64,000 bases of DNA from Escherichia phage vB_EcoM-RPN242, in the sequence record OL656110.1; one strand, written 5' to 3'. The notes under the pieces are model-generated. The model ran no database searches, was not told the origin of the DNA, and saw nothing but the letters and a program-made list of their open reading frames with translations. Every line of letters begins with the position of its first letter. Position 1 is the first letter of the stretch. A program made the translations under genes and the position numbers. This document shows, one piece after another, positions 1 to 62,610 of this stretch.

Positions 1-2757
1 ATGAAAATGCGCAAGTCCGAGCACTTTATCCGCTCGTCGTCTTCCATTCAGGGGCAGGCGTTCAACGTGAAGATGAACGATAAGATGTTTGAGACTCTGT
101 TCTCATCATTGTATCGTTACAAAGAGGCTGCAGCCCTGCGCGAAACCGTCTGTAACGCCATCGACTCCCATGGCATGCGTGATCGTATGCACCGTATGAT
201 AGCATCCCACTACGCGCCTCTCACTCCGCCTCCTGCCCGCCATAGCAAATACCTTGCACCGAAGGGTAAGCAGGTTGTTGTGCATCTACCTGATGACTTT
301 GAACCATGGCTGGAAATCCGTGATTACGGCATCGGTCTGCCACTCGAGAAGATCATTGGCGAGCCTATCCCAGCGCAGGAAGATGAGGTGCTGCTGGAAG
401 GCAACATGGTGGTCAAGGAAGACGAGATCCCTGACTCAGCTGAGGTCATCGGTGTGCCTGCGTTCTATAATGGTGGTCTAGTGTTCCGTCGCGAAGATGG
501 TGAAATCATTCGTACGCCTGGGTTGTATACCACTCTCTTCCACAGTACGAAGGAAGAAGATGATGATCAGATTGGGGCATTCGGTCTTGGCTCCAAATCA
601 CCATTTGCGGTATCGGATTCGTTCACAGTGGAAAGCCGCATGGACGGTAAACTCCATCGCTTCCTGATGTACCTGAATGCCAAGCGCATCCCGACTGTTG
701 ATCTGATCACCAAAGATCTTGAAACCCGTGATCCTAAGCCGGAAGACACCGATGAGTTCAACGGCATGACGGTGAAGATCCCGGTGAAGAACGCTCGCTT
801 CTCCGCATTCTCTGATGAGCTGGTTCGCCTTGGTCGCGTTATGCGCCCTGAACAACGTCCAATTGTTGAGAACGCTTCATACCGCTTCAGCTGGGAAGAT
901 ATCAGTTATGATTTCAAGGTCAACAACACGTACATCCAACCGAAAGGCCAGGGGAACACCCATTACGCTGTAATGGGTGGTGTGTCGTACCCGATTGACC
1001 TGGACCAGCTGGACCCGGACACTGCTTCCATCATGAGCAAGTTTCCATCGTCCTATACGTTCTTCGAACTTGGCTCGCTGAACGTACCACCGTCGCGTGA
1101 AGACCTGTCGTATGACGAATTCACGCGTGAGACGCTCTCTGAGGAGTTTAAGGGCACCGCCAATGCAATCTTGACAGAAAAGATGCGTGACCTGGAGCTG
1201 GCGTGTAAGCGCGGTCCTCTTGCCCTGTATATGGAGAAGGTAAAACTGAGTGAAATGTTCGGCAGTGGGTTCCGCAAGATGGTTGAAAAGGAATACCCGG
1301 CTGACAAGCGCTTTCATGATTCATATTACCGTTACCCGCTGCCTGTTGAGATTGATCGCGATTATGACCATACCGCGCCGTTCAATGAGCTGTCATCGCC
1401 GTTCTCTATGGAGATCTTCTATGACTGGGGTGAGTCCAGTACCCTGACCATTTCAGAAATCCAGAAGTGGATTGATCGCGGCCAGCATGTTACTGTGGTG
1501 ATCGAAGATAGTGTTCGTGCTCGTAACCTGAAGATCAAGCAGCTGAAAGATACAGGGACGATAGTCATCGTGGCCAAGCCGAACACATCCTATGTCACCA
1601 AGCGCAACCAATCTAAGGACAACCCTGCGTTCAAGAATTCTCAGGCTCTCTATGATTTCTTTGAAACTTGGATTGGTAAAGAAGAAACGACGGTTGATTA
1701 TCTGTGCTTCGCTGACAAGTTCGTCGATTGGCTGAGTGCGGTGCTGGAGCCTGCTGAAGTTAAGTTCATGAACGAACTGACGTATGTCACGCCCCCGGTC
1801 ACCAAAGACCCTGGCCTGTTTCCGTTCACGCGCAGCAACTTCGACATATACCAGTCTGAAGAACTGACGGGCGACCAGATCTCAGATATCATCAACAAGG
1901 GCGAGCGCATCGTCTATATTGAGGTGTCTGGTTATGAGTGTATCCATCAGGTGATGGACAGAACGTTGACGACTGCGGCGGCGCGGGGTATTCGTAAATC
2001 TCTGTATGAGCACGCAGTCAGTGTCGACGATGAAGGCAAGCCAGTGTACATCAGCGATATGTTGAACGTTCACAACCGAATCTTCTTGGCTCGTCGTAAA
2101 TCCGTGCCAATGATGAAGAAGTTCCCAGAGGTCTTCATACCGATCGATGAAATCCTGAAGATCATGTTGGAAAACGTGAAACCTATGATGGAGCGCGATA
2201 GCGCCAGGCGCATACTGGAATCATACCGCCGCATGCGCCTTGGGGCGGATCGATTAAAATACGGGAGCCATCTGGTTCATCAGGCGTTTGGTGATGTTGA
2301 AGACGATCGTTATGGCAAATTGGTCAGCCGTTACAACAAGTTAATGAAAGTCGTGGACGATATCTTGGATGAGCAGACTGTACGTCATTACCAAAGCCTG
2401 GCGAAAGCCCCGGTTTCAATCAATGACAAGCGTCGCTTTAGCCATTTCCAGGACACAATACATTCTCTTAACGTGAATTTGTACGCCAACGAGCGTGACG
2501 AAAAGATCTTCCGTTCAGAACATCAGATGCTACAGATCTTTGAATGCGCTTCGGATGTGTTGCGGTCTCATGGATTTACACCGTTTGATATATCGAGGAC
2601 TCCGTCATTGAAAGCAAGGCGGGAAAACCGATTGACCATCGAGCGTCATCGTGTTGTCCGGTTCTTGAAAGAGAATTACAAACCAAGCGCCCTGAACCCG
2701 ATTGAAAATTCTTCGGATTACTTGGACGTTATTTCAAATTCCATTATCAGGGCATAA
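1..2757 (+). CDS. rIIA: rIIA protein (GHKL/HATPase-like ATPase fold); 5' end may lie at or beyond window start
   Basis: 918-aa ORF from ATG at position 1; GHKL motifs RETVCNAIDS (N box), IRDYGIGLP (G1), GAFGLGSKS (G2); followed directly by an rIIB-like gene as in T4-like genomes. Confidence 0.75.
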   Translation: MKMRKSEHFIRSSSSIQGQAFNVKMNDKMFETLFSSLYRYKEAAALRETVCNAIDSHGMRDRMHRMIASHYAPLTPPPARHSKYLAPKGKQVVVHLPDDFEPWLEIRDYGIGLPLEKIIGEPIPAQEDEVLLEGNMVVKEDEIPDSAEVIGVPAFYNGGLVFRREDGEIIRTPGLYTTLFHSTKEEDDDQIGAFGLGSKSPFAVSDSFTVESRMDGKLHRFLMYLNAKRIPTVDLITKDLETRDPKPEDTDEFNGMTVKIPVKNARFSAFSDELVRLGRVMRPEQRPIVENASYRFSWEDISYDFKVNNTYIQPKGQGNTHYAVMGGVSYPIDLDQLDPDTASIMSKFPSSYTFFELGSLNVPPSREDLSYDEFTRETLSEEFKGTANAILTEKMRDLELACKRGPLALYMEKVKLSEMFGSGFRKMVEKEYPADKRFHDSYYRYPLPVEIDRDYDHTAPFNELSSPFSMEIFYDWGESSTLTISEIQKWIDRGQHVTVVIEDSVRARNLKIKQLKDTGTIVIVAKPNTSYVTKRNQSKDNPAFKNSQALYDFFETWIGKEETTVDYLCFADKFVDWLSAVLEPAEVKFMNELTYVTPPVTKDPGLFPFTRSNFDIYQSEELTGDQISDIINKGERIVYIEVSGYECIHQVMDRTLTTAAARGIRKSLYEHAVSVDDEGKPVYISDMLNVHNRIFLARRKSVPMMKKFPEVFIPIDEILKIMLENVKPMMERDSARRILESYRRMRLGADRLKYGSHLVHQAFGDVEDDRYGKLVSRYNKLMKVVDDILDEQTVRHYQSLAKAPVSINDKRRFSHFQDTIHSLNVNLYANERDEKIFRSEHQMLQIFECASDVLRSHGFTPFDISRTPSLKARRENRLTIERHRVVRFLKENYKPSALNPIENSSDYLDVISNSIIRA

Positions 2758-2788
2758 TAGTCCTGTTAACCAACGTGGGAACTACAAG

Positions 2789-4351
2789 ATGAACAAGATT
2801 GACGAAAAGATCCTGAAGTATTTGAAGGAAGGCAAAAGCCAGAGCGCAATTGCTACTCTGTTGGGCATACCCCGCTCGACTGTACAACGTGTTGCAGACA
2901 CGGAACTCGGTGTCAACCCGTTATCGCTGAAATCTCTTACCACTGAAGAGATTCAGCAGATTCAGATGAAGAGCAAGGCTGGTGAAAGCAACCGTGCCCT
3001 GGCTGAGTTCTTTGCTGTAAGCGCCAAGACCATTGCTCGCGCTCTGTTGGTCCGGATTACCGAGGAGAAAAACAAGGTAACTGTGATCTCTCCTATCAAG
3101 CCGGAAGAGCAGGAAGTATTCGAGGTCCAACCGGGCGGCACGGCCAAAGACAAAGATGGCACAGAATGGTATGTTGGGGCATATCTGCCGAACCACAACA
3201 AGTATCTGTGTCTCACTAACGACGGCAATTTCAAAGGGGCTTTCTTTGAAAAGTCTGAATTGACTCCTGTGGAAGGCGATAGTCGCGATTTCGATGTTGA
3301 AGATATCGGCAAGATGGCAGAAATTTCTGTGGCGCTGTCAGAAGGTGCGGACAAAGTCCCGAGCAACGTTGAAATCAGCGTTGTGGTTGACGGGGAAACC
3401 TATCCTATCCGTGGATCCTTGGATGCCCGTCGCCGTGTTGGTTACTTTGATGGCATCCTCGGTCGCACCCTGCGCCTGGCTCTGTCTTCTGTAGAATTCG
3501 CCGTCGCTGTCAAAGACGTTGAAGAAGTGGCTGATGATAAGAAGACCAAGCAGGACTTCGGCGCGAAAGACCTGGACGTGTTCCTGAACGAACACCAGAT
3601 CCTGATTCTTCCTGACAGCGTTGTTATCGCGATTGACGGCAAGCCGGAAACGATCACCACTTCACACCCGGCCTATGACCGCATCGTACAGGCGATCAAA
3701 GACAAAGACGTGAAACTGGCATACTCGCTGATGCGCCCTCGTGAAGCCATCGCGAAGTACGCTGCTGGTCTAGTAGACGTGTCTGACAACCGTGTCCGCT
3801 GGTCTGGCCATGACATCACAGGCACATCCATCGCCAAGCGTGTACTGGCGCTGATGCTGAAGGGTGACTTCCACAACCTGGACCGCATGGCGAAGTTTAT
3901 GGACAAAATGTTCCAGAACCCGTCAGCTTCTCTGGTTCAGTCTGGGCGCATCTATGAGTTCATGGCGTACTCTGACATCGAAATTGACGACGATGGTGAC
4001 ATCATCCTCTACAAATCAGTGCGCGGCAACTACATGGACAAGCACAGCAACACGATCAGCAACGCCCCAGGCACTATCGTGCGGATGGCTCGCTCATTCG
4101 TGAACGACAACAACTCTGAACTGTGTTCATACGGTTTGCACGTTTGCTCCCTGGCCTATCTGAAACAGTGCTTCGGTTCTGTTGGCCAGCGTGTCGTTCG
4201 CTGTAAGCTGAACCCGCGTGACATCGTGTCGGTCACCGATGATTTTGGTTCAAGCAAAATCCGCTGCTGTGAATACCTGGTGTTGGATGACTACACTGCT
4301 GAGTACAATCGCCAGCACAAGTCTATTGACGTGACAGGTCTGTACAAGTAA
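2789..4351 (+). CDS. rIIB: rIIB protein
   Basis: ATG at 2789 (track ORF begins at in-frame TTG 2702); C-terminal block ...GLHVCS...NPRDIVSV... matches my recollection of the T4 rIIB C-terminus; follows rIIA. Confidence 0.75.
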   Translation: MNKIDEKILKYLKEGKSQSAIATLLGIPRSTVQRVADTELGVNPLSLKSLTTEEIQQIQMKSKAGESNRALAEFFAVSAKTIARALLVRITEEKNKVTVISPIKPEEQEVFEVQPGGTAKDKDGTEWYVGAYLPNHNKYLCLTNDGNFKGAFFEKSELTPVEGDSRDFDVEDIGKMAEISVALSEGADKVPSNVEISVVVDGETYPIRGSLDARRRVGYFDGILGRTLRLALSSVEFAVAVKDVEEVADDKKTKQDFGAKDLDVFLNEHQILILPDSVVIAIDGKPETITTSHPAYDRIVQAIKDKDVKLAYSLMRPREAIAKYAAGLVDVSDNRVRWSGHDITGTSIAKRVLALMLKGDFHNLDRMAKFMDKMFQNPSASLVQSGRIYEFMAYSDIEIDDDGDIILYKSVRGNYMDKHSNTISNAPGTIVRMARSFVNDNNSELCSYGLHVCSLAYLKQCFGSVGQRVVRCKLNPRDIVSVTDDFGSSKIRCCEYLVLDDYTAEYNRQHKSIDVTGLYK

Positions 4352-53257: not shown

Positions 53258-54052
53258 TTAACTGAAACTCTTGTATGCTGCTGCGAGCTTCGTGTCGTAC
53301 TGGTTCTTGGCATACGCCGGACCATTATAGCGCCGCGCAAACTCAGCCCAGTTCTTGTCCTTCAGAGCCTGCCAGAGCTTGGCGTCAGCCTTGATGAACT
53401 TCACGAATGCCATCAAATGAGCACGTTCTCCTGTCAGGAAGTCGTTGAACATCTCCTTGGCGTTGGCATATCCACAGACCTGGCAGTTGAATCCCATGAT
53501 CTGGAAGAGACCGTAAGAGGCGCTCTCGTACGCACAATCCTCATCAATGTTGATGGCCGCATGAAGTCGATCCAACTCCGCGTCGCCGCCCGTGTACCCG
53601 CCTGCAGAAGGGTTGACCAACGTCGGGTACATATGTCCCATGGCATTCGCCCGAGCCTGTCCGAACTTCGCCATCAGCTTTTTATACATGATGTGGCGCT
53701 CAAATAATGTCTTGATCTTACCTGACTTGGTGAAGCCCGTGCCGCGCGACTCAACCTGATTCACCGCCTTGACAGAGGCAAGGTCAACACCCAGATCGTT
53801 AGCAGCATCAATCAGGTCTGACTCAGTTAGATGATCCTGATGGGCGTCTCCGGCGTTGCGAATAGCATAGGAGGTCTTTGGACCCACGATACCATCAATG
53901 ACAAGCCCCGCACCCGCCTGAACAGTCTTGACGGCGTTCTCTGTTGCCTTGCCAAAGATACCATCAGCGACGAGGGTGAAGCCGATTTTGTTGAGGCTAT
54001 CCTGAAGTGCCTTCACTTCAGTACCACGGTTGCCAAATTTTAGAATGGCCAT
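53258..54052 (-). CDS. endolysin (N-terminal peptidoglycan-binding domain plus C-terminal muramidase-like domain)
   Basis: ATG 54052 with SD GGAGG; PG-binding-like LKFGNRGTEVKALQDSLNKIGF...DGIFGKATENAVKTVQ; C-terminal VESRGTGF...YGLFQIMG glycosidase-like motifs. Confidence 0.7.
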   Translation of the reverse strand: MAILKFGNRGTEVKALQDSLNKIGFTLVADGIFGKATENAVKTVQAGAGLVIDGIVGPKTSYAIRNAGDAHQDHLTESDLIDAANDLGVDLASVKAVNQVESRGTGFTKSGKIKTLFERHIMYKKLMAKFGQARANAMGHMYPTLVNPSAGGYTGGDAELDRLHAAINIDEDCAYESASYGLFQIMGFNCQVCGYANAKEMFNDFLTGERAHLMAFVKFIKADAKLWQALKDKNWAEFARRYNGPAYAKNQYDTKLAAAYKSFS

Positions 54053-54121
54053 AAGAAAATACCTCCACAATGAATGCAGAGGTATTTAAAGTGAAAGTGA
54101 ACTACTTGAGGGAGTGGTGTA

Positions 54122-55435: not shown

Positions 55436-55597
55436 TCAGCACTGATTGGTTCCCCATGGAAGTCCACCTGACCATTCTTCCAGCCGTGGATGAAACTCGG
55501 AGACTCTTCCCCAGATAGGACATACCCCTTCACGAGATTTCAAGTACCCCCGCACGACCTCTCCGTCGTCCAGTTTGTTCAGTTCTTCTAACGTCAT
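55436..55597 (-). CDS. small ORF (53 aa) coupled to primase, not in ORF track
   Basis: ATG 55597 overlaps primase stop (ATGA); own translation MTLEELNKLDDGEVVRGYLK... Confidence 0.25.
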   Translation of the reverse strand: MTLEELNKLDDGEVVRGYLKSREGVCPIWGRVSEFHPRLEEWSGGLPWGTNQC

Positions 55598-56652
55598 CGC
55601 ACTTTCCTCAGTTCAGCGAATTGTAATGATGCGGCCATACCTTGGTAAACGTTCTTGGCGATTAGCTTCAGGAGGTCTTGTATGGACATGTTGCCCTTTG
55701 ATGGCATGACCATGTCGTTGATATCCTTCCAAGGAACGTCTGGTGGGAACAGTACAACCTTGACACCTTTATCTATCATCTTCTGAATACCGTCACACAC
55801 CTGTGGGTTCCGGTACTGATTATCAGGGATATAAATGTCTCCCTTCACGCTCAGTAGATCAGCGTCGGCCGATGCAAGACAGTTGGGTAGGAACAGGCTG
55901 TCAATCGGACCTTCCACAACCAGCTTGGTCTTGTGAATGTTTACCCGGTCTTCACCATACACCTTAGTGTCTTCATCCTTGGGCTTGACTGTTGCGTAGC
56001 GCAGTGTCGCATTCTTGTCGAATGCACGCCCCTGAACGATCTTCATCCGCCCATCTTGCGTCCAGAATGGGATTACCAGGCGCTCGTCATCGGGAATTTT
56101 CAGTTGCTTCTCAGGGTTCGTTTCGAACTGGAGTAGATCCTGGCGGAAGTGTTGTGTGTAATACAGGAGGGACAAAGTGCTCTCCGGCAGTCCACGCCAC
56201 TGTACGTACTGTCGAGCCTTATGGTCAGGCGGTAGCAGATCAAGCCGTAGCATATTGCCGAGGAGGCTCTCGTCGCGTTTCGCCGCCACTGAGCCAATAC
56301 GGGCGGTCTGTGTCAGCTTTGGCAGCGGCTTCAGGGAAGGAAGTGGTCTGTCCGACGTATCACCCAGCAGACGGAACTTCTCCATGTTGTACTCTGTTGA
56401 GAGGCGTTCGTCGAACTTCTTCAGCCAGAACTCAAATGACCAGCCATTCATCTGGTTGCAGTTGTGGCATTTGAACCGGAAGCAGTCATGATCCCGATCA
56501 TAGAAGAAGTATCCACGGCGCTTGTTAGCAGACTTCGTGGAGTCACCACACAGGGGACAACGGAAGTTCGCAACAGAACCCACGCGCTCCCACTTGAACT
56601 TGTCAAGGCGGGGCGATACGTTGTTGATAAATTGCTCGTCAAGAAATTTCAT
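55594..56652 (-). CDS. 61: DNA primase (gp61-like)
   Basis: ATG 56652 gives 352 aa; zinc ribbon FRCPLCGDSTKSANKRRGYFFYDRDHDCFRFKCHNC parallels T4 gp61; TOPRIM-like VVEGPIDSLFL and ADADLL. Confidence 0.8.
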   Translation of the reverse strand: MKFLDEQFINNVSPRLDKFKWERVGSVANFRCPLCGDSTKSANKRRGYFFYDRDHDCFRFKCHNCNQMNGWSFEFWLKKFDERLSTEYNMEKFRLLGDTSDRPLPSLKPLPKLTQTARIGSVAAKRDESLLGNMLRLDLLPPDHKARQYVQWRGLPESTLSLLYYTQHFRQDLLQFETNPEKQLKIPDDERLVIPFWTQDGRMKIVQGRAFDKNATLRYATVKPKDEDTKVYGEDRVNIHKTKLVVEGPIDSLFLPNCLASADADLLSVKGDIYIPDNQYRNPQVCDGIQKMIDKGVKVVLFPPDVPWKDINDMVMPSKGNMSIQDLLKLIAKNVYQGMAASLQFAELRKVR

Positions 56653-57263
56653 TAGATCTTCGGCCTCTGGAACACTTCGGTCACAGTATAGTCTACACCA
56701 CGACTTTGAGCTATACACAGTTGACGCCAAGCCCCATACAGGATATTCTGCTCCCCGGCAGTGTTGCGCTCAAAGTGGGCGAAGCCGTCGAGGAGTTCCA
56801 TGTAGCTACGCATATGCCGGGTAACGGTTCTTCCTCTCTTGATCTGTTCATCAAGGTACTTCTGATAATGCTCTGGTGATGACAATGAAGAGTACTGCAT
56901 GTCTGGCACATGAACTGGCATCAGGGACTTGCGGGGTGTGAAGTAGAACAACCCCCACTTTGGTGGCAGGTCTTCAACCCTGATCACGTCCTGAGGGCAG
57001 ACATAAAAGCGGTATGCGCCCATCCCTGTTGTGGGGTCCATCCGATGGGGCTTCTTCTTGTCGGTAAGGAAATCAGAGCGAGACACCTTCACTTCCATCA
57101 GGATAGAGCAACCGCCGGAACGGAACCCGATGGCATCAGGTGATTCTTTGTTGTCAAACGAATTTGGCTCGATGAAGACAGCGCCGCAGTTCATGCGACC
57201 GCGCAGGTAGTTGGCCGCGATTTCACATCCTTCGCGGTGTGACGGGATAAAGATTTTGCTCAT
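56652..57263 (-). CDS. PD-(D/E)xK-family nuclease, putative
   Basis: ATG 57263; motif PDAIGFRSGGCSILMEVKVS (D ... E-x-K) typical of Hjc/RecB-like nucleases; TAATG overlap with primase start. Confidence 0.45.
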   Translation of the reverse strand: MSKIFIPSHREGCEIAANYLRGRMNCGAVFIEPNSFDNKESPDAIGFRSGGCSILMEVKVSRSDFLTDKKKPHRMDPTTGMGAYRFYVCPQDVIRVEDLPPKWGLFYFTPRKSLMPVHVPDMQYSSLSSPEHYQKYLDEQIKRGRTVTRHMRSYMELLDGFAHFERNTAGEQNILYGAWRQLCIAQSRGVDYTVTEVFQRPKI

Positions 57264-57319
57264 TGTCCTTTCCTTTCGGTGAATAATGAGCAAATTATAT
57301 GCCTTTATTTCGTATTGAC

Positions 57320-57673
57320 TTACGACAGCTGCTTCAGTTTGTAGATCGTCTGATAACACAGTGTCTTGATATCGTCAAGAGTGCTCTGAAGGTGGGAGTC
57401 ACACTGCTTGTAGATGCCATCGACGTCTATCACCACACTATTAATATAGGAGATAGGGTCTGGGTTGTACAATTTGATATTCTCGAATGATGGAACATAC
57501 TGACCACCCGCACCGATGTATGCTTCGGTAAACGTGTCCAGCAAGTCCTCTAGACCCCCGTAGAACTCCCCGAGTGCCTTGTGCTTGGCATAGGACGTTG
57601 TAACGAAGTGTAAGGCATGAGAGTGGGCTATAGCAAGCAGTCCACGGTTGATGAAAATACTCGCATTGACCAT
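57320..57673 (-). CDS. hypothetical protein
   Basis: ATG 57673 with SD GAGGAA (track start 57727 is GTG). Confidence 0.45.
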   Translation of the reverse strand: MVNASIFINRGLLAIAHSHALHFVTTSYAKHKALGEFYGGLEDLLDTFTEAYIGAGGQYVPSFENIKLYNPDPISYINSVVIDVDGIYKQCDSHLQSTLDDIKTLCYQTIYKLKQLS

Positions 57674-57685
57674 GATTTGTTTCCT

Positions 57686-57719
57686 CAGAAAAAGAAATCC
57701 CCCTGTATTTAGGGGGATT
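57686..57719 (-). terminator. rho-independent terminator
   Basis: 9-bp stem AATCCCCCT/AGGGGGATT, 6-nt loop, followed on minus strand by TTCTTTTTCTG. Confidence 0.55.
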
Positions 57720-57758
57720 GTAATCACTGTTTGACCAGAGTCATCTTGATAGTTTCAC

Positions 57759-58064
57759 TTAGTCTTTGTCGGCAGACTTGCCAAAGAAGAATTCGAAACC
57801 GTCATGGACAACAACGACTTCCTGACCTTGGGAGATACCGTGAGTCTGGTCTGGGGTCAGTTTCACCTTGATAGTGTTGCCGTTGGTTAACTCCAGGTTG
57901 TAGACATCCGCCTGATTGTCAGGGGTGATCTGGGTCACGGTAGCACCGGAGCACCACTGAGTGCCGTCAGCTTGCTTGGTGATGGATACGGTCTTACCCT
58001 GGACACCAGCATGGGTCTGAGGTTTAGCGGCTTGTTCTTTAAAATATTCGATAAACGGTTTCAT
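57759..58064 (-). CDS. hypothetical protein expressed from a late promoter
   Basis: 101-aa ORF with SD GAGGAG; TATAAATA 24 nt upstream on minus strand. Confidence 0.5.
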   Translation of the reverse strand: MKPFIEYFKEQAAKPQTHAGVQGKTVSITKQADGTQWCSGATVTQITPDNQADVYNLELTNGNTIKVKLTPDQTHGISQGQEVVVVHDGFEFFFGKSADKD

Positions 58065-58087
58065 CTTAATCTCCTCGGGATTTCAGT

Positions 58088-58095
58088 TATTTATA
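58088..58095 (-). promoter_or_regulatory. T4-type late promoter (TATAAATA)
   Basis: plus-strand TATTTATA = minus-strand TATAAATA, 24 nt upstream of ATG 58064. Confidence 0.45.
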
Positions 58096-58119
58096 AGCCC
58101 CCGAAGGGGCTTTCGATGA

Positions 58120-60840
58120 TCAGATCTTAATCTGCATGTTGCCACCCAGGGACTGCTCGTACTCGCTGTATGCGCCTTCCCCGTAGTCTCGTGCCCACTG
58201 GTCAGACTGCTGGGCGCTATCCAGAGTCATCAGGTTTGGTTCAGTCGGGTTGTAACCCTTGGACTTCGCATCCCGGTACAGAGTCTGCAGGTACTGGTTG
58301 GCGCGGTCAATCTGAGATTTGAACTCGCGATATGCCCCTTCAGTTGTGTTGCGGCGGAAGGTGATATCCCAGTCCACGTTCAGAGTCTGACCATCACGGC
58401 TTGCATAGATCTGCCAATCCAGGTCGCGGCCTTTTGGTGCGTTGTCGCGGATGGAGTCGGCGTATGCCGCAAGGTCGGCACCAGTCTTCTTCGCAGTACT
58501 CGACTCTTTCTCCAGTCTCTCGGTTTCTTTGGACAGGATACCCAACATAAATTCATTAGTGCGGCGATCCGCCATGTCGTACCCGCGCCAAAGGACTGAA
58601 CCGTTGTTGTCAACAGAAATGTCGTCCAAAAATACTTGTTTCGGATTATACGACGTGCTTTTCAGAGTTTGTATATTCCGAGATATCATTTCCATTTTAG
58701 AAGAAATTTCATCGATCACGGCCTGAACAATATCTTTCTTCAAAGTAAGTTCATATGTCTTCGGATTGTTCAGGGTACGACCTTTATTGGATACAATAGG
58801 CGTGATCGCCACTTTGCCTTTGTCGTAGTAATAGGTCACATTCGTGGTCAATACAGCACCATCATACTTCCCAGTTTTCGGGAAATTGACGCCAGACCAA
58901 GTGATGGACATACCGTTGACAGTCTCACCAAACACCATGGCGTTGCTTGGTATATTCAGGGTTCCAGAGTTGACCAGATCAGCGCCTTGGGCATTCAGGT
59001 CGATAGAACCATAGATGGCCCCGGTAATACGATCTTTCAGCATCAGGGTCTTGTCGCCCTTCTCTGGGATGATTTCCAGCGGGTGCTTGCCACGCGGAGG
59101 TTCTTTGATGAGTTCCAGTAGAGCAGTTTTCCCTGGCTTCACACGATTCAGGACAGCGTCGGACACTGTCAGAGTCCAGTTTGCGGTTTCCACATAACCC
59201 CAGCCCCGAGAACGGCGAATGGCTTTGATAGGATATGGAGCGCTTGTTGGCACTGCGCTAATTTCCCATTTGCCAGTGTACTGGGTCTTGGCAACCTCAA
59301 AGATGGACGCAATTACCGCATTGGCGACGTCACGGGCGCTACCTTTGGCCACGTTCTCCTCTTCAGCAATTTCGCTGAAAACTGAGTATTGAACGAAACC
59401 AGCGAGGACGTTTGTGAAGTTGACAACGATAACCAACCCGCCTGCTGTCGTGTAACGACCAGCGCCCACACGACGGATGTTTTCACCAGGAAGAATAGAA
59501 GTGTCCAGCCCAACGTTGGTATCAATGATACCCAGAACACGAGCGATGAAACCACTGTTACGTAATTGATCAACACTGGTTGCACCCTCGGTCGAATCCG
59601 ATGCGGATTTAGACACTTTGTTCAACTTGATAGAGACAAGGGTTTCCCCGTTGACACCGATGATATCCCATTCAGTACCCTGCTCGTTCGAGATGCGAGC
59701 AGTCTTGCGCTTTGAATTGATGGCACCTTCGTAACGCCCGTTCTTGACTACAACAGAGGCTGTGGCAGCATCAGTAGCACTTGCTGCATTTGAAAAGTCT
59801 GGGTCAGAAATACTGATGTCGACGTCACCGTTTTGAGAACGCATGCGAACGCCGTTTTTGAATCGTTCCACGTTTACTTCTCGAGCACCAAGTCGTTTGG
59901 CATCAATAACAGCAGTTCCAGAACCGATAATGTTGGCTGGGTTATTTCTGTCTGAACTGTTTTGAGAACCTTTCCAAAATTTTGTGGACGCTGTGGTGAA
60001 ATCATTCAGGATACTGATAGGGACTTGTGGTAATTTCAACTGACGAGCAATGAAATCAGCACTTTGCCCACGCACAGGTTTCTCATTCATGTATGCGCCA
60101 ACATACACACCCGGCTCATTGTAGTGGGGAGCGATATTTGCCGTGTTCATGCGGCCTCTCTCCTTACCAGCCCATAACAACATGGGCTGATCTCCGTTTG
60201 AAGTTAATTTCCATCCGTTGGAATTATCAACAGAAGATGACACACCCACATCCGGAGTATTGTTCTGAACCGGAACGTCACCGACCTTGTCTGGATCATC
60301 CCAGGTGATACCCTGCATCTTCGGACCGTCGAATACCTGAGCCGGATCTTTACCCTTGCGGACCAGCCACACATAACCACGGTCAGGGACAGGCGCGTAG
60401 GTCAGGTCCATGACATTCAGTTTCTGTTTCAGGCCGGACTGGCGGATGATCTTAGGAATCAGGGTCATACCGCGATCCAGCGCTTTCTTCGAGAAGTTGA
60501 CAGCAAAGCCATCGATGGTTTTGCCCAGAGGAGTCGCCATGAATTGTTTGGTCGCTTCGATCATGGAAGCGATAACGCGCATTGGGTTCTTGAAGCGAGC
60601 GATGGCGTCAGGATAGACGGAGCCGCGCTTCTGGCCGATGAAAACCTGACGAACACTCTTACCCAGCCCCTGAGGGGTATAGAACTGAATACGGTATTCC
60701 TTTTCATCTTCGTCGACGAAGGTGAAGAACACATCGCCTGCGTTCTTCTTACCCATGGTCAGCTCATACGGAGCGGAGTTGAACGCTTCGTCCAACTGAT
60801 CTCTTTCCTGCATGAACTGGAGGAAACTTAGCTTTGACAT
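58120..60840 (-). CDS. large hypothetical protein (906 aa)
   Basis: long ORF with SD AGGAGA; no recognisable catalytic motif. Confidence 0.6.
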   Translation of the reverse strand: MSKLSFLQFMQERDQLDEAFNSAPYELTMGKKNAGDVFFTFVDEDEKEYRIQFYTPQGLGKSVRQVFIGQKRGSVYPDAIARFKNPMRVIASMIEATKQFMATPLGKTIDGFAVNFSKKALDRGMTLIPKIIRQSGLKQKLNVMDLTYAPVPDRGYVWLVRKGKDPAQVFDGPKMQGITWDDPDKVGDVPVQNNTPDVGVSSSVDNSNGWKLTSNGDQPMLLWAGKERGRMNTANIAPHYNEPGVYVGAYMNEKPVRGQSADFIARQLKLPQVPISILNDFTTASTKFWKGSQNSSDRNNPANIIGSGTAVIDAKRLGAREVNVERFKNGVRMRSQNGDVDISISDPDFSNAASATDAATASVVVKNGRYEGAINSKRKTARISNEQGTEWDIIGVNGETLVSIKLNKVSKSASDSTEGATSVDQLRNSGFIARVLGIIDTNVGLDTSILPGENIRRVGAGRYTTAGGLVIVVNFTNVLAGFVQYSVFSEIAEEENVAKGSARDVANAVIASIFEVAKTQYTGKWEISAVPTSAPYPIKAIRRSRGWGYVETANWTLTVSDAVLNRVKPGKTALLELIKEPPRGKHPLEIIPEKGDKTLMLKDRITGAIYGSIDLNAQGADLVNSGTLNIPSNAMVFGETVNGMSITWSGVNFPKTGKYDGAVLTTNVTYYYDKGKVAITPIVSNKGRTLNNPKTYELTLKKDIVQAVIDEISSKMEMISRNIQTLKSTSYNPKQVFLDDISVDNNGSVLWRGYDMADRRTNEFMLGILSKETERLEKESSTAKKTGADLAAYADSIRDNAPKGRDLDWQIYASRDGQTLNVDWDITFRRNTTEGAYREFKSQIDRANQYLQTLYRDAKSKGYNPTEPNLMTLDSAQQSDQWARDYGEGAYSEYEQSLGGNMQIKI

Positions 60841-60915
60841 TTTATATCTCCTGACTGAATTAACGGCGGTTTCTTCTAATTAGCGAAACCAAAAGGGAGC
60901 GTCAGCCCCCTTATC

Positions 60916-61251
60916 TTATTTTTGAACTTGGGCTACAGACATCGCCCAGAGCGGGAGGGTGTGGGGGTCCAGGGCTTCCAGTAGATATTCGACGCGCTCT
61001 GACATGATACCTTCAGGGAAGTTTACTTCTTCTGGTTCGTTGTTGGCCGTCCAACCCAAGGTCAGTCCTTCAGCGTGATGGATGATATAAACGAAGTCGC
61101 CCGATTCGTAGTCCTTTTCCATCAGGGAGAAGAAATCTTCCATTTCTTCGTCGGAGAAGTAGTAGATGCGAGGTACGGAGCCGTCAGCAAAGTGCTCAGC
61201 ACCCTGGAAGGCAAACATGTCATCGGCGGTGAAGTTCTTGAGTTGTGTCAT
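60916..61251 (-). CDS. hypothetical acidic protein
   Basis: ATG 61251 preceded by the 16-nt motif GGAACTATATCATGAC. Confidence 0.45.
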   Translation of the reverse strand: MTQLKNFTADDMFAFQGAEHFADGSVPRIYYFSDEEMEDFFSLMEKDYESGDFVYIIHHAEGLTLGWTANNEPEEVNFPEGIMSERVEYLLEALDPHTLPLWAMSVAQVQK

Positions 61252-61262
61252 GATATAGTTCC
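61247..61262 (-). repeat. 16-nt start-region motif GGAACTATATCATGAC (copy 2)
   Basis: identical to 48135-48150. Confidence 0.5.
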
Positions 61263-61326
61263 TGCTATTCAAGTTGGTGTCGTACTGCTTATGGAATGAA
61301 GTATAGGGAAGGATATTGAAGAAGTA

Positions 61327-61349
61327 AAGGGGCGAAAGCCCCTTTTATT
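61327..61349. terminator. GNRA-loop hairpin terminator
   Basis: 7-bp stem AAGGGGC/GCCCCTT with GAAA loop; TTTTATT on plus strand, TTTACTTC on minus. Confidence 0.5.
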
Positions 61350-61357
61350 GAATTATT

Positions 61358-61996
61358 TTACGGCGTCGGATTCACAACCGGAATGTGGGATCGAATACCT
61401 GCGATGATGTCCTTCAGCTGAGGCTTCCATCCATCCACCAAACGGGGTAGAGCGATAGCACCAGGCTGAACTAAAATGATGTCGCTGCCTGTGATATTGT
61501 GCTGAGGGAACTGGGCAAGGTACTGCTCCATGGTGACACCCTCATCAATCAGAACCGCACCGACGTCAGACGATGCGTAGGTTGCACCCAGACCGTCAAC
61601 ACCCCACGCCAAAATACCCCAGTCAGGGATGTTGGCTTCAGATGTGATAGTGAATCCAAACACGGTGTTCAGTGATGTAAAGGAGTAGACATCGTGGGTG
61701 ATGTCATACACCAGATACCCCTTGGTCAGCATATCGGCAAAGATCGCGTCCGTATCGCCAGCAGTCGGAGTCGGTACAGTAAACAACAGCTCGCCATCAG
61801 GAGGAGCAGGGTATGTGCTGAGGGCATAGAGGCACCATGCGTCAATACACTTCTTGATAAATGCCTCCGGTGCGACATAATCAGCAAGGCGAACCGTACC
61901 TGAGTACTCGGATACGATGATGCCTTCCTTCGCACCCTGTAGAGCAATGAAGACCAAGATATGTTCATATCCGGCCTGAGATGGAGTGATGTTCAT
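61358..61996 (-). CDS. hypothetical protein
   Basis: ATG 61996 (aa 33 of track ORF) overlapping upstream stop by 1 nt. Confidence 0.45.
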   Translation of the reverse strand: MNITPSQAGYEHILVFIALQGAKEGIIVSEYSGTVRLADYVAPEAFIKKCIDAWCLYALSTYPAPPDGELLFTVPTPTAGDTDAIFADMLTKGYLVYDITHDVYSFTSLNTVFGFTITSEANIPDWGILAWGVDGLGATYASSDVGAVLIDEGVTMEQYLAQFPQHNITGSDIILVQPGAIALPRLVDGWKPQLKDIIAGIRSHIPVVNPTP

Positions 61997-62610
61997 TATC
62001 TTGTCCTCTTCAGTTTCTCTATTGTGTGCTTGTTCATGGTGATCACCTGAGGATCTACCTCGGAGATGGTCCGGCCTTCGAAGGACACACATTTCTGAAG
62101 ATATTTAGCTTTCTTCACGACGTCGGCAGCATAAGCGTTCGATGCAGGATTACGGGCGAAGCCAGCATTGTAAGAGGAGAGGGATTTGCGGATATTCTGA
62201 TTGTGATAGGTCAGCCAGAACTGCATCTCATCGAGGGCGGCTTGCGCGGCATATTCTTGGTCGGTCAGCAACTTTATAGCGACATTGGCATAGCACTTGC
62301 GATTCTTACAACCTTCGCGATCACCAACTGTCTTCACCTTGTTCTGAAAGGCTCCCATGTTGGCCGCCTTGAGGTCGTATCGCATTGACACTACATCTTC
62401 ACCAGCGCGGCTCTCTCGCCAAGATATGGCGGCCAGAGTGTAGCCAAGATCTTGTGTCTTGCCTACGTGATAGGCGGTTGCCAGCGTATTAAGTTGTTGC
62501 TCGGAGAAATTATAATCGCATTGGGTGGTACTTTGGGAAGCGTGCACATTCCCGCTGGCAATGGTAAAGGTCACGGACAAGGCCATGGCCTTCAACGTTG
62601 TCATCGTCAT
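61996..62610 (-). CDS. secreted lytic transglycosylase-like (SLT) protein with signal peptide
   Basis: signal-peptide-like N-terminus MTMTTLKAMALSVTFTIASGNVHA; SLT-like motifs ISWRESRAG, MGAFQ, SYNAGFA; SD AAGGAA. Confidence 0.55.
   Translation of the reverse strand: MTMTTLKAMALSVTFTIASGNVHASQSTTQCDYNFSEQQLNTLATAYHVGKTQDLGYTLAAISWRESRAGEDVVSMRYDLKAANMGAFQNKVKTVGDREGCKNRKCYANVAIKLLTDQEYAAQAALDEMQFWLTYHNQNIRKSLSSYNAGFARNPASNAYAADVVKKAKYLQKCVSFEGRTISEVDPQVITMNKHTIEKLKRTR

Follow-up and report, generated by a model that had tools for sequence, protein, structure and literature searches.

Alt of bacteriophage T4 belongs to the prohead core, which holds about 40 copies of it, and enters the host by ejection (PMC5694885, PMC9026906). 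It is trimmed at both ends by gp21, the prohead protease, losing six residues from the N-terminus at ITE-6 and 63 from the C-terminus at LTE-619 (PMC5694885, PMC9026906; X15811 annotation); gp21 cleaves after Glu within L/I-x-E motifs. In the paper on 'polyvalent proteins' Alt is the prototype of a packaged enzyme, and its N-terminal region is not defined as a delivery module (PMC5512222). In this work we have analyzed a gene for a 906-amino-acid protein in a stretch of 64,000 nucleotides of Escherichia phage vB_EcoM-RPN242 (OL656110.1), referred to below as the window. We propose that its product is probably an Alt-type internal head protein devoid of the ADP-ribosyltransferase, which would be loaded into the prohead core, processed after residue E18, kept in the head and probably ejected at infection.

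In sequence the 906-amino-acid protein and gp086 of Escherichia phage vB_EcoM-RPN242 are 100% identical, and the phage group is the Aglimvirinae (Agtrevirus-like) of the family Ackermannviridae. The DNA of the window is 97-99% identical to that of phages A221 and AV101 and is matched by 159 phage records, from phages of Salmonella, Klebsiella, Dickeya, Escherichia and Shigella. The protein family is annotated as hypothetical in every record, and the protein is a member of phrog_3867 (function unknown in PHROGs). Pfam returned only noise for the full-length protein, with no match at E up to 0.1, in agreement with the first-pass annotation, made from the sequence alone, that no catalytic motif is evident; a sequence search of the PDB likewise gave noise and no relative. 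In the record of Shigella phage Ag3 the orthologue is split into three open reading frames (ORFs).

The syntenic orthologue in Salmonella phage Sajous1 is gp214 (795 amino acids), whose identity to the 906-amino-acid protein is 74% in the first 290 residues and 44% in the last 485 (BLASTP). Its gene lies past the gp46/47-like endonuclease, the RegB/Vs.1-like genes and two small ORFs, and is followed by four small ORFs and the primase. In CsCl-purified Sajous1 virions gp214 gave 196 spectra and was among the top five proteins, compared with 924 spectra for the major capsid protein and 311 for VriC (PMC10892097). In Dickeya phage LIMEstone1 ORF081 was detected with 23 unique peptides (55% coverage), ranking behind only the tail sheath, and ORF082 with 4, and both were confirmed as structural proteins (PMC3296691). 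ORF082 and ORF081 (HE600015 11416-13012) are one gene for about 530 amino acids, split by a frameshift in the record, since the match of ORF082 covers residues 1-104, after which its frame is lost and the conserved sequence goes on in a different one. The Sajous1 and LIMEstone1 proteins occupy the same genomic slot and have the same terminal domains as the 906-amino-acid protein; they are shorter because some of the middle modules are missing. It is thus firmly supported that orthologues of the 906-amino-acid protein are abundant virion components in two genera.

The architecture of the protein was defined by BLAST comparison with 120 orthologues and its conservation by an alignment of 37 orthologues. 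The gene and the parts of its product are as follows.

58120..60840, minus strand: gene of the 906-amino-acid protein, a complete ORF with ATG start and TGA stop, read from the sequence
60787..60840, minus strand: residues 1-18, predicted N-terminal propeptide, ending L16-D17-E18↓A19-F20, a gp21-type L/I-x-E site
60271..60786, minus strand: residues 19-190, Alt-N-type domain (N-domain), assigned by conservation and homology to T4 Alt
59581..60270, minus strand: residues 191-420, variable region in which blocks of about 100-120 amino acids are gained or lost at junctions 198, 296 and 307/408
58681..59580, minus strand: residues 421-720, middle region, shared by most orthologues (the shortest lack about 311-618)
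58486..58680, minus strand: residues 721-785, low-confidence helical linker, with an 80-amino-acid insertion at 782 in some orthologues
58123..58485, minus strand: residues 786-906, mobile C-terminal domain (about 120 amino acids), ending ...YSEYEQSLGGNMQIKI, found also in small phage proteins

Residues 1-198 and about 620-906 are kept in nearly all of the 120 orthologues. The indels occur at fixed junctions (a 119-amino-acid insertion at 198, deletions of 196-296, 307-408 or 311-618, and the 80-amino-acid insertion at 782), and the lengths of the orthologues range from about 555 to 1208 amino acids. Across the genera of Ackermannviridae residues 15-190 are almost invariant, and the remainder shows 45-70% identity. 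Neither self-BLAST nor segment-versus-segment hhalign detected internal repeats, so that the modules cannot be recognised as copies of each other. The variable region is predicted to consist of small alpha+beta domains, and residues 421-720 are the best-modelled part (predicted local distance difference test, pLDDT, 80-91), with two-layer alpha/beta sandwich domains that have generic structural neighbours only. The protein contains no cysteine and two histidines.

A single-sequence comparison of the 906-amino-acid protein with T4 Alt (NP_049811; phrog_802) is weak, and the relationship was examined with profiles. One of them, A2, combined 39 non-redundant diverse N-domains; the other combined 14 Alt N-termini from Straboviridae, 35-100% identical to T4, whose diversity was gathered by tblastn against annotated phages, a scan of viral contigs having yielded close Alt relatives only. 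With hhalign the N-domains matched the Alt N-termini at 97.3% probability (E = 1.9e-11) over 169 columns, query residues 6-178 lying on Alt 1-179, and at 98.3% in global mode. The controls gave 0.1% for reversed Alt, at most 1.5% for twenty column-shuffled Alt profiles and at most 0.2% for Alt against six other segments of the 906-amino-acid protein, and A2 without its four closest sequences still reached 97.5%. These profile comparisons firmly support homology between the N-domain and the N-terminal domain of T4 Alt, a region to which no function had previously been assigned.

The same alignment places E18 of the query on E6 of Alt, the ITE-6 site. The motif L16-x-E18 is kept in 37/37 orthologues, and the superfamily-wide site reads [LIVF]-x-E↓[AS]-[FL]-[ND]. 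Ackermannviridae possess both a prohead protease and a core scaffold, and the two proteins have been found in Sajous1 virions (PMC10892097). Given the alignment with Alt E6, the conserved motif and the presence of the protease, we predict cleavage after E18, which would leave the mature N-terminus AFNSAPYEL, AFNSAPYELTMGK.... The N-terminus of the precursor, MSKLSFLQFMQE RDQLDE, contains two [LIVM]-x-E sites, at residues 10-12 and 16-18, and has no close likeness to MKTYQEFIAE.

The 906-amino-acid protein and T4 Alt have in common a homologous N-terminal domain of about 180 residues. In each the L/I-x-E motif stands at the aligned position, ITE-6 closing the short propeptide of Alt and LDE-18 the predicted one of the 906-amino-acid protein. 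Both are multi-domain virion proteins of 700-900 amino acids from T4-type myoviruses with a gp21-type prohead protease. Unlike Alt, the 906-amino-acid protein has no R-S-E ADP-ribosyltransferase domain, and its middle and C-terminal regions are unrelated. The first-pass annotation had proposed a search for R-S-E motifs; the protein matched neither PF03496 (E up to 1) nor phrog_802, and no other recognisable enzyme domain was found, and T4 Alt and three distant N-domain proteins matched both models. Lacking the catalytic domain, for which it was tested, the protein cannot be counted as a strict member of the Alt enzyme family. The earlier suggestion of an Alt-like packaged virion protein is partly supported. 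The two genes also differ in location, the one described here lying between Vs.1/RegB-like genes and primase and alt adjoining gp54 and ligase, and the spectral counts suggest that the family is more abundant than the approximately 40 copies of Alt.

Distant relatives were sought by a whole-protein profile search of 1.84 billion representative proteins, which gave 145 matches falling into two independent sets. About 80 proteins (300-1400 amino acids) carry the N-domain, always at the extreme N-terminus and followed by unrelated sequences. Three of them, P0194, P0201 and P0209, have at the C-terminus an exoenzyme domain of the ADP-ribosyltransferase type (PF03496, E 1e-9 to 1e-18); their N-termini match phrog_3867, and phrog_802 (Alt) is matched over its positions of about 361-640. 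The N-domain in these three proteins therefore occupies exactly the place that the N-terminal region has in T4 Alt. The gene of P0201 (N-domain and ADP-ribosyltransferase, 580 amino acids) adjoins a second N-domain gene (516 amino acids, E 1e-53) that lacks the ADP-ribosyltransferase. Both tandem genes (616-3968 of a Logan SRR30568138 contig, derived from an uncultured T4-type phage) are located beside genes for gp23, a gp22-type scaffold, Peptidase_S77 (gp21), portal, tube and sheath.

The C-terminal regions of other distant relatives are varied. P0142, P0148, P0154, P0159, P0164, P0175 and P0208 share the motifs LWHE.GH and ATEV(L/I)SMG(L/F)Q and are, by their HExxH, metallopeptidase-like; the sole match of this HExxH-type region was to the tail of phrog_2299, Pfam and the PDB giving none. 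No sequence identification in Pfam or the PDB was obtained for a 'GGGATKKL'-type C-terminal region, a tentative GNAT, and that of P0247 has a weak ParB-like match in PHROGs.

The second set comprises about 60 proteins with the C-terminal domain only (query 786-906), which stands alone in proteins of 110-140 amino acids, in tandem, or behind a Cys-rich element. In 35 of 58 such small proteins a [LIVMF]-x-E motif ends at residues 6-20, compared with 21% of internal 24-mers of the same proteins. Some of their starts resemble a capsid-targeting sequence (CTS): P0193 begins MKTFKEFVKE↓S and others MKLTDLMEMA or MKIQELLTEMA, and the T4 internal proteins IPII and IPIII begin MKTYQEFIAE↓A and IPI MKTFKEF.... 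In P0192, P0196, P0202, P0210, P0236, P0237 and P0248 a CTS-like L-x-E-M-A is followed by a Cys-rich, zinc-ribbon-like CxxCG...HYWYKGxWxCK, and in the metagenomic P0190 a DUF7270-like N-terminus is combined with the C-terminal domain of the 906-amino-acid family.

Apart from this recurrence of its C-terminal domain in small proteins with CTS-like starts, the 906-amino-acid protein resembles the T4 internal proteins (IPI/IPII/IPIII) in the entry into the prohead core and the release after Glu by a gp21-type protease that we propose for it. In contrast to them it is not basic and has ten times their size, its N-terminus MSKLSFLQFMQERDQLDE departs from the MK-T-[YF]-x-E-F pattern, and its targeting would depend on a folded domain of 170 residues and not on a 10-residue peptide.

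Structure prediction for the N-domain depended on the alignment supplied. With the Ackermannviridae orthologues only, modelling of this part failed (pLDDT below 50) because the domain is invariant among them; with the diverse alignment, residues 1-190 refolded at pLDDT 91.3 and a predicted template modelling score (pTM) of 0.84. In the model a long helix at the N-terminus is followed by four antiparallel strands and then by helix, strand, helix and two more strands. The nearly invariant residues of the domain, E18, Y25, F41, G60, T92, G111, V169 and F170, are structural and not catalytic.

From these data we infer the location of the protein in the head, its cleavage after E18, its ejection and its activity in the host. 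The protein would be produced late enough to enter the prohead, and the Alt-type N-domain (about 19-190), standing behind an 18-residue propeptide, would steer it into the prohead scaffolding core, which T4 Alt enters too. A gp21-type prohead protease would then cut off the propeptide after L-D-E18, and many mature copies would remain inside the DNA-filled head until they are ejected together with the DNA at infection. The variable middle and the mobile C-terminal domain would do their work inside the host, where takeover of the cell or counter-defence is the most plausible role for them. A role in host-phage conflict is suggested by the fast turnover of the modules and the mobility of the C-terminal domain, and at this point it is speculation.

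Several observations weigh against this proposal. The homology to Alt depends on intermediate sequences, since direct hidden Markov model (HMM) matches are weak (5.8 bits, though equivalent positions are aligned) and a profile of Ackermannviridae orthologues alone reaches only 30.8% against Alt, which is also why the link has been missed until now. When an Alt-family HMM was run on the ORFs of the window the 906-amino-acid ORF ranked first, at a weak E of 0.04, and the newer Pfam Alt-N family PF26846, which is placed on Alt N-terminal fragments, is not recorded on Ackermannviridae proteins. Directly upstream of the gene no match to TATAAATA, the T4-type late promoter consensus, was found, and the equivalent LIMEstone1 operon is annotated with a middle promoter. 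The cargo region has no recognisable activity. Other points bear on where the protein resides: the proteomics was done on whole virions, the 196 spectra suggest a copy number well above the approximately 40 of Alt per head, and the insertion or deletion of whole modules is equally typical of surface-exposed proteins. Moreover, gp214 was labelled 'tail completion protein' in PMC10892097, with no evidence offered, and is hypothetical in its GenBank record. The protein could be an external component of the virion, for tail completion or termination, in the neck or collar, or as a capsid decoration, the resemblance of its N-domain to Alt then reflecting a shared attachment module and not packaging inside the head. 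We consider this unlikely; no homology of sequence or fold between the 906-amino-acid protein and known tail completion or terminator families was found.

A place inside the head is also compatible with a protein that is never ejected and that builds or sizes the core, or fills volume and so tunes the packing of DNA. Abundance in virions, the lack of an enzyme-like domain and the retention of just the two terminal domains in the shortest orthologues speak for such a role, as does the extreme conservation of the N-domain, which is expected of a protein-protein assembly interface; Alt of T4, too, belongs to the core, and more DNA is packaged by alt mutants (PMC3012670). On the other hand, those T4 core proteins that serve assembly alone are fragmented and exit the head (PMC9026906), but peptides cover 55% of LIMEstone1 ORF081. 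The same N-domain bears ADP-ribosyltransferases in other phages, which fits delivery better than scaffolding, and the fast-changing modular middle suggests a target of an arms race. A purely structural role seems improbable to us. We give very little credence to the idea that the N-domain is itself a GNAT-fold acyltransferase and that T4 Alt has a likewise unrecognised N-terminal activity. What speaks for it is the model, whose top Foldseek matches are all GNAT (NAT9, SpeG, the Gcn5 module and the ICL2 C-domain, probability 0.82-0.96), whose strand-helix order resembles the GNAT order beta2-beta3-beta4-alpha3-beta5-alpha4-beta6-beta7, and for which GNAT families are the sole high-probability local matches in the full-length version too. 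However, the TM-scores of these neighbours are just 0.35-0.39 with E-values of 0.01-0.05, and no Pfam acetyltransferase family was matched. The acetyl-CoA motif Q/R-x-x-G-x-G/A is absent from the loop that precedes the long helix (residues 71-85, KRGSVYPDAIARFKNP). Hydrophobic residues and glycines make up the nearly invariant positions, and save for E18 of the cleavage site these include no Glu, His, Tyr or Cys of a conserved catalytic kind. As judged from the model, the GNAT likeness is a remote topological resemblance only.

With the 906-amino-acid protein read as an Alt-type internal head protein, the distribution of its N-domain takes on a wider meaning. The domain is always N-terminal, precedes varied C-terminal regions and occurs beside head genes, which suggests that it is a packaging determinant. 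It is conceivable, and we put it forward tentatively, that in T4-type phages the Alt N-domain serves generally as a head-delivery module, a folded unit of about 170 residues that follows a short propeptide removable by the protease and brings exchangeable cargo into the prohead core, to be injected later. Among this cargo would be ADP-ribosyltransferases, HExxH-motif domains, ParB-like domains (a weak match) and the modular region of the 906-amino-acid protein. The fusions of MuF (SPP1 gp7/Mu gp30) to polymorphic effector or toxin domains and the 'polyvalent proteins' offer a parallel (PMC5512222): they combine a conserved N-terminal head module with interchangeable C-terminal domains, including ADP-ribosyltransferases, are encoded beside head genes and are delivered with the DNA, and we propose the same logic for the N-domain proteins. 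There is no relationship of sequence or fold between the two modules, no MuF (Phage_Mu_F) domain was found in the 906-amino-acid protein (Pfam, E up to 0.1), and the Alt-N domain belongs to T4-type phages whose proheads have a scaffolding core.

If the proposal is true, the module would be a counterpart of MuF effectors working alongside the 10-residue capsid-targeting peptide, and the 906-amino-acid protein a major injected effector of a new kind, its reshuffled modules and C-terminal domain being engaged in an arms race. The Alt N-domain could then serve as a second, larger tag for loading foreign proteins into phage heads, and the family would be a catalogue of injected phage effectors to mine for anti-defence functions. 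Ackermannviridae phages are in wide use, and are also being engineered, for the biological control of Salmonella, E. coli, Klebsiella and Dickeya and for detecting these bacteria, and one of the most abundant virion proteins of these phages has so far been 'hypothetical' or mislabelled as tail completion. None of the literature titles and abstracts found linked the Ackermannviridae 906-amino-acid protein to Alt. What is new here is that an already detected 'unknown structural protein' is placed with Alt, with a testable role in head packaging, processing and injection and a precise predicted cleavage site.

The gene is surrounded by the following signals and neighbours.

60893..60912, minus strand: terminator-like hairpin separating the upstream 118-amino-acid gene from the 906-amino-acid gene
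60848..60852, minus strand: Shine-Dalgarno AGGAG, 7 nt 5' of the ATG of the 906-amino-acid gene, read from the sequence
58097..58110, minus strand: GCCCC-TTCG-GGGGC core of a stem-loop directly past the stop of the 906-amino-acid gene, within AAAGCCCC-TTCG-GGGGCTT (58095..58113), read from the sequence
58088..58095, minus strand: TATAAATA, T4-type late promoter consensus, positioned to drive the 101-amino-acid gene
58071..58076, minus strand: GAGGAG ahead of the 101-amino-acid gene, whose ATG is at 58064
57759..58064, minus strand: 101-amino-acid gene, a shortened phrog_4048 member, downstream of the 906-amino-acid gene
57320..57727, minus strand: gene of a DUF5856 protein, homologue of T4 rI.-1/MobD.6, probable true start at 57673
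61358..62092, minus strand: gene of a DUF7270 protein, whose LIMEstone1 orthologue ORF085 is confirmed as structural
61996..62610, minus strand: gene of a Vs.1-like protein (phrog_600) with a hydrophobic N-terminus
53258..54070, minus strand: endolysin-type gene with PG_binding_1 and N-acetylmuramidase (PF11860) domains

The coordinates of the ORF, its length and the strong Shine-Dalgarno sequence reported by the first-pass annotation proved exact. The hairpin and the T4-type late promoter for the next gene were also recovered, in the order stem-loop, TATAAATA, GAGGAG and ATG at 58064. The stem-loop is GC-rich and terminator-like, with a short T tail. Two copies of TATAAATA occur in the 64-kb window, a count that is not significant since at least two matches arose in 14 of 100 shuffles; the site is credible as a promoter because it is placed between a terminator-like hairpin and a Shine-Dalgarno sequence with its ATG. 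The LIMEstone1 record carries an annotated late promoter at the equivalent position. The assignment to a primase-side block is borne out by synteny with the annotated phages AV101, Sajous1 and LIMEstone1, which places the primase at 55594..56730, downstream of the 906-amino-acid gene. In a comparison of positions 56652..62610 of the window with T4 (NC_000866 58819-62740) the virion-protein cluster corresponds to the T4 slot between rI.-1/MobD.6 and vs.1/regB, which in T4 holds rI, tk and vs; from this gene-order comparison the slot is variable and its flanking genes are conserved across both phage families.

Small neighbours of the gene are likewise found in virions (Sajous1 gp215, gp216 and gp217; LIMEstone1 ORF080, ORF078 and ORF085; PMC10892097, PMC3296691). 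As these are virion proteins with targeting-like N-termini, the 906-amino-acid gene lies in a small cluster of genes for probable internal head proteins. The 101-amino-acid protein equals the N-terminal half of a 189-amino-acid family and is therefore shortened in vB_EcoM-RPN242; its full-length orthologues, Sajous1 gp215 and LIMEstone1 ORF080, are virion proteins confirmed by mass spectrometry (PMC10892097, PMC3296691). It starts MKPFIEYFKE↓QAA, resembling MKTYQEFIAE↓A of T4 IPII/IPIII, and is much closer to the T4 CTS pattern than the 906-amino-acid protein is. A further small virion protein of Sajous1/LIMEstone1 (79 amino acids), whose gene is absent from the window, starts MKGFPDFLKE↓A. 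The 101-amino-acid protein also has a weak match to the TOBE domain.

The DUF5856 protein is called a 'starvation-inducible transcriptional regulator' in PHROGs and was ferritin-like by Phyre2 in PMC10892097; its orthologues Sajous1 gp217 and LIMEstone1 ORF078 occur in virions, which is unexpected for a regulator. A 'ferrojan horse' tail operon (PMC10892097) was rejected, the Phyre2 matches being of low confidence and its authors having seen no dependence on iron uptake. The real start of the DUF7270 ORF is probably an internal Met at residue 33, the listed start being overlapped by the Vs.1-like gene. The Vs.1-like protein has a weak lytic transglycosylase (SLT) match just under the Pfam cut-off, and records related to the endolysin-type gene name its product 'putative peptidoglycan binding protein' or 'endolysin'.

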